Shown here: piece after piece, positions 1-741 of the stretch
Numbering within the stretch: the stretch's first letter is position 1
Layout of the letters: each line of letters starts with the position of its first letter
Assembly: GCF_003334815.1 (NCBI RefSeq)
Contig: NZ_QOWO01000010.1
From: Escherichia coli
GTDB taxonomy: Bacteria > Pseudomonadota > Gammaproteobacteria > Enterobacterales > Enterobacteriaceae
Length of the DNA: 64,000 bases
Reading direction: 5' to 3' (one strand)
The notes under the pieces: generated by a model
The model's database searches: none
Seen by the model: the letters and a program-made list of their open reading frames with translations, nothing else
Told to the model about the DNA's origin: nothing
Position numbers and translations under genes: made by a program

Positions 1-741
1 AATCGGTGGAGCTGCATGACAAAGTCATCGGGCATTATCTGAACATAAAACACTATCAATAAGTTGGAGTCATTACCCTGAATTTCGTTGTCAGTCCAGA
101 GGATTTACGCAAATTAACCGTCGATGTTTTACCTGCCCTGCGAGTTAATTCCGAGCAGGCCTGAAATACCTGTAGAGTGCAATTCCATATCACGCGATAG
201 ATTCTATTCATATAAACGCTCCATATACAAACAATACAGCCACGAAAGAGATGAGTCGTCAGACATTAAAAATGAAACTTATTAAATTGTCAGAGGTCTG
301 TATTGAGTGTTAGTTGGAGGTGGGAAGGTGTCAATTTGGCTAATTTGCTAATGCTTTCGAATTGATAGATTAAAAATTGCATAGTTCTTATTTTATTTAA
401 ATATGAACTATGAGTTATTGTTGCTTAATAAGAAAACTGTTTCTTTCAATAGGAAAATTATCATCATCATATTTAACAAAGAATAGCACTAATTGCTAAA
501 AATCGAAGTTTATTAAACCCCTTTTGCATCCATTAGTGTCTTTAGGAATATTCGCTATAAAATAAGGGTTGTGCTTAATGCTTTAAGAAAAATAGCAATT
601 TTCCCTTGAATATAGTACTGGTGATGGAACGATGAATCTGCAAGCTGGCTTTTAACAAGCCAGCTCTAAAAGAAGGGAAATAAGAATAACTATACTCAAA
701 AACTAACAGCCACGGTCATCATGATGTGGCTGTCAATGAAA

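Follow-up and report, generated by a model that had tools for sequence, protein, structure and literature searches.

An IS1 end, a truncated yneO-type autotransporter gene and the yneO-lsrK spacer with a probable lsrK terminator in an Escherichia coli contig

Introduction

The gene located between hipBA and lsrK in Escherichia coli codes for a large AIDA-I-like autotransporter, which is known in strain K-12 as the pseudogene yneO (formerly ydeK/ydeU) and carries the NCBI name ECSE_1600 family. Here, we analysed the first 741 bp of a stretch of 64,000 nucleotides of E. coli DNA (contig NZ_QOWO01000010.1 of assembly GCF_003334815.1; the whole stretch is referred to as the window), which extend up to the stop codon of lsrK and had been regarded in an original prediction, made from the sequence alone, as an AT-rich non-coding region.

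The spacer between the two genes has been described repeatedly. Panyukov and Ozoline (2013, PMC3661553; Table 1, row 1596197_345) place a "promoter island" of 345 bp in the ydeK(-)/lsrK(-) spacer and record it as bound by H-NS in all three chromatin immunoprecipitation (ChIP) study sets considered for K-12 (entry "A" in the H column) and as adjoining a gene predicted to be foreign by Nakamura et al. (tabulated in the same paper). Such islands bind RNA polymerase, and little stable transcript is made from them (PMC3661553). Genomic SELEX (systematic evolution of ligands by exponential enrichment) with the RpoD holoenzyme yielded a site in the yneO/lsrK spacer, for which the promoter CTGACA-17-TTTAAT was assigned to yneO and flagged HNS (Shimada et al., PMC3946193), and an RpoS-holoenzyme SELEX peak is reported from the same spacer (PMC5493296). 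In the enterotoxigenic E. coli (ETEC) strain H10407, a MarA peak was detected at yneO by ChIP with sequencing (ChIP-seq), with the site gcactaattgctaaa (Sharma et al. 2017, PMC5684230, Table 1), and this site bound purified MarA at 0.3 µM, the lowest concentration tried (PMC5684230).

The locus analysed here closely resembles these systems. Compared to yneO-lsrK of K-12, positions 78..741 align with the equivalent of 1598220..1598616, and the ATG, the spacer length, the neighbouring genes and their orientation are alike; the difference lies in the autotransporter gene, which in K-12 is a pseudogene because of a frameshift and has a continuous 5' end, whereas it is cut by the insertion sequence IS1 after nt 134 in the window. 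The ydeK/lsrK spacer listed among the H-NS-bound promoter islands of K-12 differs from the sequence of the window by one base, but a simple consensus scan shows no high density of promoter-like sites in the window. The MarA site of H10407 is identical over its 15-mer, is located at the homologous position and lies in an identical spacer (100% over 571 aligned columns); binding has been shown in H10407, whereas it is predicted from the identity of the site for the present strain, in which the downstream gene is destroyed. We are highly confident that the 741 bp represent a composite of the right end of IS1, the cut start of yneO, the yneO regulatory tract and the terminator of lsrK. This content is ordinary and already known from previous descriptions of E. 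coli K-12 and ETEC.

Results and Discussion

Truncation of the yneO gene by IS1

The first positions of the window consist of IS1 DNA. The terminal 28 nt of IS1 are matched exactly at 50..77 on the minus strand, representing the sole IS1 end in the 64-kb window, and positions 1..77 are identical to the annotated right end of IS1 in strain DJH_183. The translation of 3..62 reads SVELHDKVIGHYLNIKHYQ before the stop codon and equals the end of an annotated coding sequence (CDS) of an IS1A-family transposase in L002, one of the numbered homologous loci used for comparison. The element therefore matches IS1 of the IS1A/IS1B family in its terminal 77 nt and the C-terminus of its transposase, both identical to annotated IS1A-family copies, and differs from it in that just these final 77 nt lie within the window. 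The junction, at which ...GGAGTCATTACC (...CATTACC) directly precedes the flanking DNA, has the same form in five further annotated IS1 copies, and the target duplication predicted for the present insertion is CTGAATTTC (78..86). Leaving aside the IS1 end, several K-12-like and phylogroup-A genomes match the first 20 kb of the window with about 100% identity, and in two of these that were inspected, IS1 is absent from the yneO-lsrK locus.

The DNA following the IS1 end codes on the minus strand for the start of the autotransporter. The open reading frame (ORF) at 56..211 (-) starts with MNRIYRVIWNCTLQVFQACSELTRR and matches the Pfam domain PF13018 (ESPR) with an E value of 5.1e-17 over residues 1-47 (model positions 1-47 of 50). 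It also matches positions 1-48 of the 1806 positions of the NCBIfam profile NF011422 ("ECSE_1600 family autotransporter"). Because just 48 of 1806 positions are present, the score of 88 bits is far below the cut-off of 2335, and the passenger and C-terminal beta-barrel expected of a full-length family member are lacking. As far as the IS1 junction, no base differs from the start of K-12 yneO (b4696). While the K-12 reading continues as ...TTKF-SRLTLGVLLALSGSASGA, that of the window continues as ...TTKF-RVMTPTY before a stop codon, with the final seven residues derived from IS1, leaving a residual ORF of 51 codons. IS1 sits after nt 134 of the CDS, within the extended signal peptide and ahead of its hydrophobic core, which shows that yneO is inactivated in the present strain. 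The remaining piece is therefore a gene fragment and a non-functional member of its family, and comparable fragments are labelled as "ESPR-type extended signal peptide-containing protein" in RefSeq. The position of the gene between hipBA and lsrK agrees with all reference loci on the lsrK side, and the hipBA side lies beyond the window.

The autotransporter is annotated as intact (about 1806 amino acids, e.g., WP_001309508.1) in four of the comparison loci (L009, L010, L011 and L013), whereas it is frameshifted in K-12, ETEC H10407 and O157:H7 (L003, L004 and L012). Because the gene is intact in some lineages and frameshifted in others, we conclude that it is decaying repeatedly via differing routes.

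Composition of the region

The coordinates of all features are compiled in Table 1. The G+C content is 0.40 for positions 1..77, 0.43 for 78..211, 0.32 for 212..741 and 0.52 for lsrK, compared to 0.494 for the whole window, and the dip is confined to about 200-700, where it amounts to 0.27-0.34 in 200-bp windows. Five runs of A5 and no run of T5 were counted. Strong AT-richness with A/T runs and the absence of a plausible coding ORF, as stated in the original prediction for all 741 bp, are consequently found in 212..741 with runs of A only, and not in 1..211, which hold the end of the IS1 transposase and the start of the autotransporter. The objection it had raised against itself, that the region might be the 3' part of a gene starting upstream, turned out to be correct for 1..62, which belong to the IS1 transposase. 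An ORF at 726..980 (+), which had been dismissed as spurious, is indeed present in antisense orientation to lsrK, and the K-12 RefSeq record has no plus-strand gene at this place. The suggestion of a degraded remnant applies to the IS1-cut autotransporter gene, whereas the spacer is intact and has its full length. The K-12-like autotransporter pseudogene suspected next to lsrK is yneO (b4696), and the sequence differs from K-12 here by one mismatch in 664 bases. The proposal that the sequence contains a silenced promoter region of a gene past the window edge agrees with the spacer being the AT-rich, non-coding promoter region of yneO, and H-NS binding, which was to be looked up in public ChIP data, is on record for the ydeK/lsrK spacer of K-12 (PMC3661553). 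The region is appropriately annotated as the end of an IS1 copy, a fragment of a truncated autotransporter pseudogene, the promoter region of yneO including its sites for H-NS and MarA, and the terminator of lsrK. The significance of these assignments is slight beyond annotation, and a label as empty or mysterious non-coding DNA would be wrong.

Table 1. Features assigned to positions 1..741 of the window and the adjoining lsrK gene
Feature	Position	Strand	Basis
IS1 insertion sequence, right end (remainder upstream of the window)	1..77	+	exact terminal 28 nt; identity to annotated IS1
IS1 transposase (InsB / InsAB'), final 19 codons and TAA	3..62	+	translation equals annotated CDS end
yneO/ydeK-type "ECSE_1600 family" autotransporter gene, initial 134 nt (44 codons + 2 nt)	78..211	-	Pfam ESPR, NCBIfam NF011422, DNA identity to K-12
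yneO-lsrK intergenic spacer, 530 bp, 32% GC: yneO regulatory region and lsrK 3' flank	212..741		length match to K-12
Sigma-70 promoter-like element CTGACA-17-TTTAAT, directed at yneO	265..293	-	sole match in window; RpoD SELEX
Marbox (MarA binding site) GCACTAATTGCTAAA	486..500	+	exact single match; H10407 ChIP-seq site
Palindrome, 9-bp perfect stem, 5-nt loop	643..665		no U-tract on either strand
Probable lsrK intrinsic terminator: 12-bp stem (8 perfect pairs, 706..733), then UUUUU	698..737	-	RNA fold
lsrK (autoinducer-2 kinase), TAG stop 742..744	742..2334	-	530-aa ORF; annotated lsrK in all homologous loci

The yneO-lsrK spacer as a regulatory region

The spacer is equal in length to that of K-12 (530 bp; 1598087..1598616). 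Of 5426 complete E. coli genomes, 4225 contain it in a single copy with 93-100% identity, and no annotated features were present beneath the match in any of 30 sampled records. Relative to K-12, the single mismatch within 78..741 is located at position 611 (A vs. C). In an alignment of eight E. coli lineages, the stem at 706..733 and the end of lsrK are invariant; beyond the marbox and the -35 element, substitutions are scattered over the rest. A deviating arrangement is present in strain ST540 (NZ_CP007391.1; locus L013, 2501..4599), where the spacer breaks off after 315 bp and gives way to a truncated transposase of the Tn3 family (TnAs1) and unrelated genes; lsrK and the genes around it have apparently been replaced.

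The published yneO promoter sequence is present once in the window, at 293..265 (-) and 54 nt upstream of the ATG, compared to 0.02 occurrences expected by chance. Its -35 element is invariant in the eight lineages and its -10 element varies in one of them. Using an estimated coordinate offset between genome versions, the promoter island maps to roughly 300..655 of the window. The AT-rich tract from 212 to about 700 represents the 5' regulatory region of yneO, which may be silenced by H-NS in the present strain, with MarA countering the silencing. The evidence for H-NS, the promoter and MarA comes from literature on identical or near-identical sequence.

The 15-mer of the H10407 MarA site shows an exact single match at 486..500, and its published centre at 1717112 maps exactly onto this position via the H10407 locus. 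The marbox is kept in all eight lineages with at most one change in each, and its centre is located about 200 bp upstream of the -35 element of the SELEX promoter. This high-affinity box is in "backward" orientation relative to yneO, as is the marbox of marRAB.

As an alternative, the AT-rich spacer may be seen as a decayed older gene or mobile element rather than as a regulatory region, which would agree with its lower GC content compared to the neighbouring genes and with the predicted foreign origin of the adjoining gene (Nakamura et al., in PMC3661553). This is extremely unlikely, given that the spacer keeps a length of 521-530 bp at 93-100% identity across about 4000 genomes, some of which have an intact autotransporter gene, and contains experimentally bound promoter and MarA sites. 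Moreover, the ORF list shows no remnant of more than 30 codons, although no translated search was made. We therefore retain the assignment as yneO regulatory region.

The probable lsrK terminator

On the minus strand, the sequence from 737 to 702 is predicted to form a 12-bp stem, in which eight perfect pairs are contributed by 706..733, and is followed by UUUUU extending down to 698. Folding of the RNA of 690..745 (-) yielded a free energy of -17.9 kcal/mol (z = -4.06). The stem is invariant in the eight lineages, and a 3-nt deletion in two of them places the U run flush with the stem. Because of the fold, the U run and the invariance, the segment 698..737 (-), in which the stem-loop and U-run arrangement of an intrinsic terminator is predicted, probably represents the terminator of lsrK. 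A simple terminator scan missed this structure because its loop limit was set to 8. The sole terminator-like site reported by the scan lies inside lsrK at 929..944 (-) and consists of a 6-bp stem with a AATTTTTTCA tail, which is probably due to chance. In the two lineages with the 3-nt deletion (loci L008 and L009), the bases lost from the U-run region are CTA, and a further 6 nt (TAACCT) are missing just past the terminator (equivalent to 698..705).

Scanning one genome per species of the GTDB with 26 nt of the lsrK terminator resulted in a sole match, contig JARKOR010000214.1 (L016; 25 kb), E. coli DNA that is filed under a metagenome-assembled genome of "Candidatus Nanosynbacter", almost certainly owing to mis-binning or contamination. 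Its positions 12777..13698 contain the 5' end of E. coli yneO, the spacer and the end of lsrK with about 98% identity to the window, and the contig ends in the left end of an IS1 copy inserted within lsrK.

The palindrome at 643..665

The original prediction had pointed out an imperfect hairpin just beyond the lsrK stop codon. The hairpin exists at 643..665 (AGCTGGCTT-TTAAC-AAGCCAGCT), but its 9-bp stem is perfect and it is located 77 nt past the stop codon (742..744), with the structure at 698..737 lying nearer. It folds with -17.7 kcal/mol on the minus strand (lsrK sense) and -14.7 kcal/mol on the plus strand (z about -3.4), and among 2000 dinucleotide-shuffled versions of the spacer, 44 (2.2%) contained a stem of equal or better quality. 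The palindrome continues into GCAGAUUC (minus strand) or CUAAAAGA (plus strand), neither of which provides the U run of a terminator, and the terminator scan did not report it. Changes of T>A, G>A or C>T disrupt the palindrome in five of the eight lineages and leave one or two non-compensated mismatches, some of which would allow wobble pairing on one strand and others on the opposite strand. The palindrome is thus probably not the lsrK terminator, and is most likely a lineage-specific accident without terminator function. An assignment as a sigma-54 promoter, suggested by correctly spaced GG and GC, was dropped by eye because the -12 element reads AAGC instead of TTGC.

A function of the palindrome may still be considered, either as a back-up 3' stem-loop by which read-through transcripts of lsrK are stabilised, or as the symmetric operator of a dimeric DNA-binding protein. 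The perfect 9-bp arms are shared by the present strain, K-12 and H10407, a comparable stem arises in only 2.2% of the shuffles, and both hairpins form when the lsrK 3' flank is folded as a whole (z = -5.3). Nevertheless, we regard such a function as unlikely, since the majority form among the eight lineages contains an A.A mismatch, to which others add a second, uncompensated one, the U run is absent, and no regulator using the sequence was found in the literature searched.

The palindrome was also considered as part of an unannotated small RNA (sRNA) or small-protein gene in the spacer, e.g., a MarA-activated transcript which starts near the marbox and includes the 643..665 hairpin. In favour of such a gene, the MarA site is bound in vivo and in vitro yet ill-placed with respect to the known promoter of yneO. 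Direct reading of the sequence reveals several -10-like hexamers adjoining the marbox, SELEX shows binding of RNA polymerase holoenzymes to the spacer, and the hairpin folds better than shuffled sequences. However, nothing is annotated in the K-12 RefSeq record or in the 30 sampled genomes, and a search of Rfam 15 at E<=1 yielded two chance matches to eukaryotic long non-coding RNAs (E=0.25 and 0.44), which are far under the gathering scores. The changes in the hairpin are non-compensatory and do not consistently support either strand, a U-tract is absent, and promoter islands are reported to yield little stable RNA (PMC3661553). With regard to a small protein, eight ORFs of 20-30 codons gain almost only amino-acid changes, and three of them lose their stop codons in some lineages; the conservation test gave no sign of purifying selection, with low power at the present divergence. 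An sRNA or small-protein gene, the former of which had also been put forward in the original prediction, is therefore very unlikely, and the spacer is best described by the yneO regulatory region and the lsrK 3' flank.

Evaluation of the composite assignment

Several observations weigh against the composite of IS1 end, cut yneO start, regulatory tract and lsrK terminator. The exact IS1/yneO junction was found in none of 5426 complete E. coli genomes, so that no sister genome confirms it. Because the left end of IS1 and the rest of the autotransporter gene are located outside the window, the sequence fits a simple insertion as well as an IS1-mediated deletion or inversion. A consensus scan of positions 1..1000 did not recover any strong sigma-70 site, compared to 3.2 expected from shuffled sequences; the published yneO promoter was missed because the T at position 2 of its -10 element breaks the rule of the scan. 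As a consequence, the label as a promoter island is taken from the algorithm of other authors and from SELEX. With its distance of about 200 bp from the SELEX promoter, the marbox lies beyond the usual range of class I or class II activation. Finally, data on 5' or 3' ends of transcripts were not found, and the Term-seq supplement of PMC7815308 contains no entry for lsrK or yneO.

Further IS1 insertions at the locus

IS1 copies are also present at other positions of the locus. Within yneO, they are located after nt 145 (strain F404), 172 (ECNB21-M121), 540 (MB19) and 722 (DJH_183) from the ATG, and in strain LR-71-1 an IS1 copy interrupts the spacer at a site equivalent to window position 536. 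Each of five inspected copies at the locus is flanked by a clean 9-bp target duplication (IS1 at 6459..7226 of L001, 5310..6077 of L002 and 791..1558 of L005, L006 and L007). About 50 complete genomes carry IS1 in or adjoining the region, with at least 10 distinct span lengths among the 60 best records and at least 10 IS1 positions within 1.5 kb, to which the present window adds another, unique position; these counts include no control for phylogeny or for orientation bias in the joining of matches and are given as an observation only. IS1 prefers AT-rich DNA as target, which is probably why it landed here. A more far-reaching interpretation, in which the H-NS-coated yneO 5' region and spacer form a true IS1 hot spot and, separately, the MarA box drives an unmapped transcript of the spacer, appears improbable to us. 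The present insertion adds one further example of IS1 inactivating a silenced adhesin-type gene at a repeatedly hit locus.

Elsewhere in the window, two neighbouring ORFs of 808 amino acids each were noticed on the plus strand at 39725..42151 and 42209..44635, which are probably tandem paralogues.
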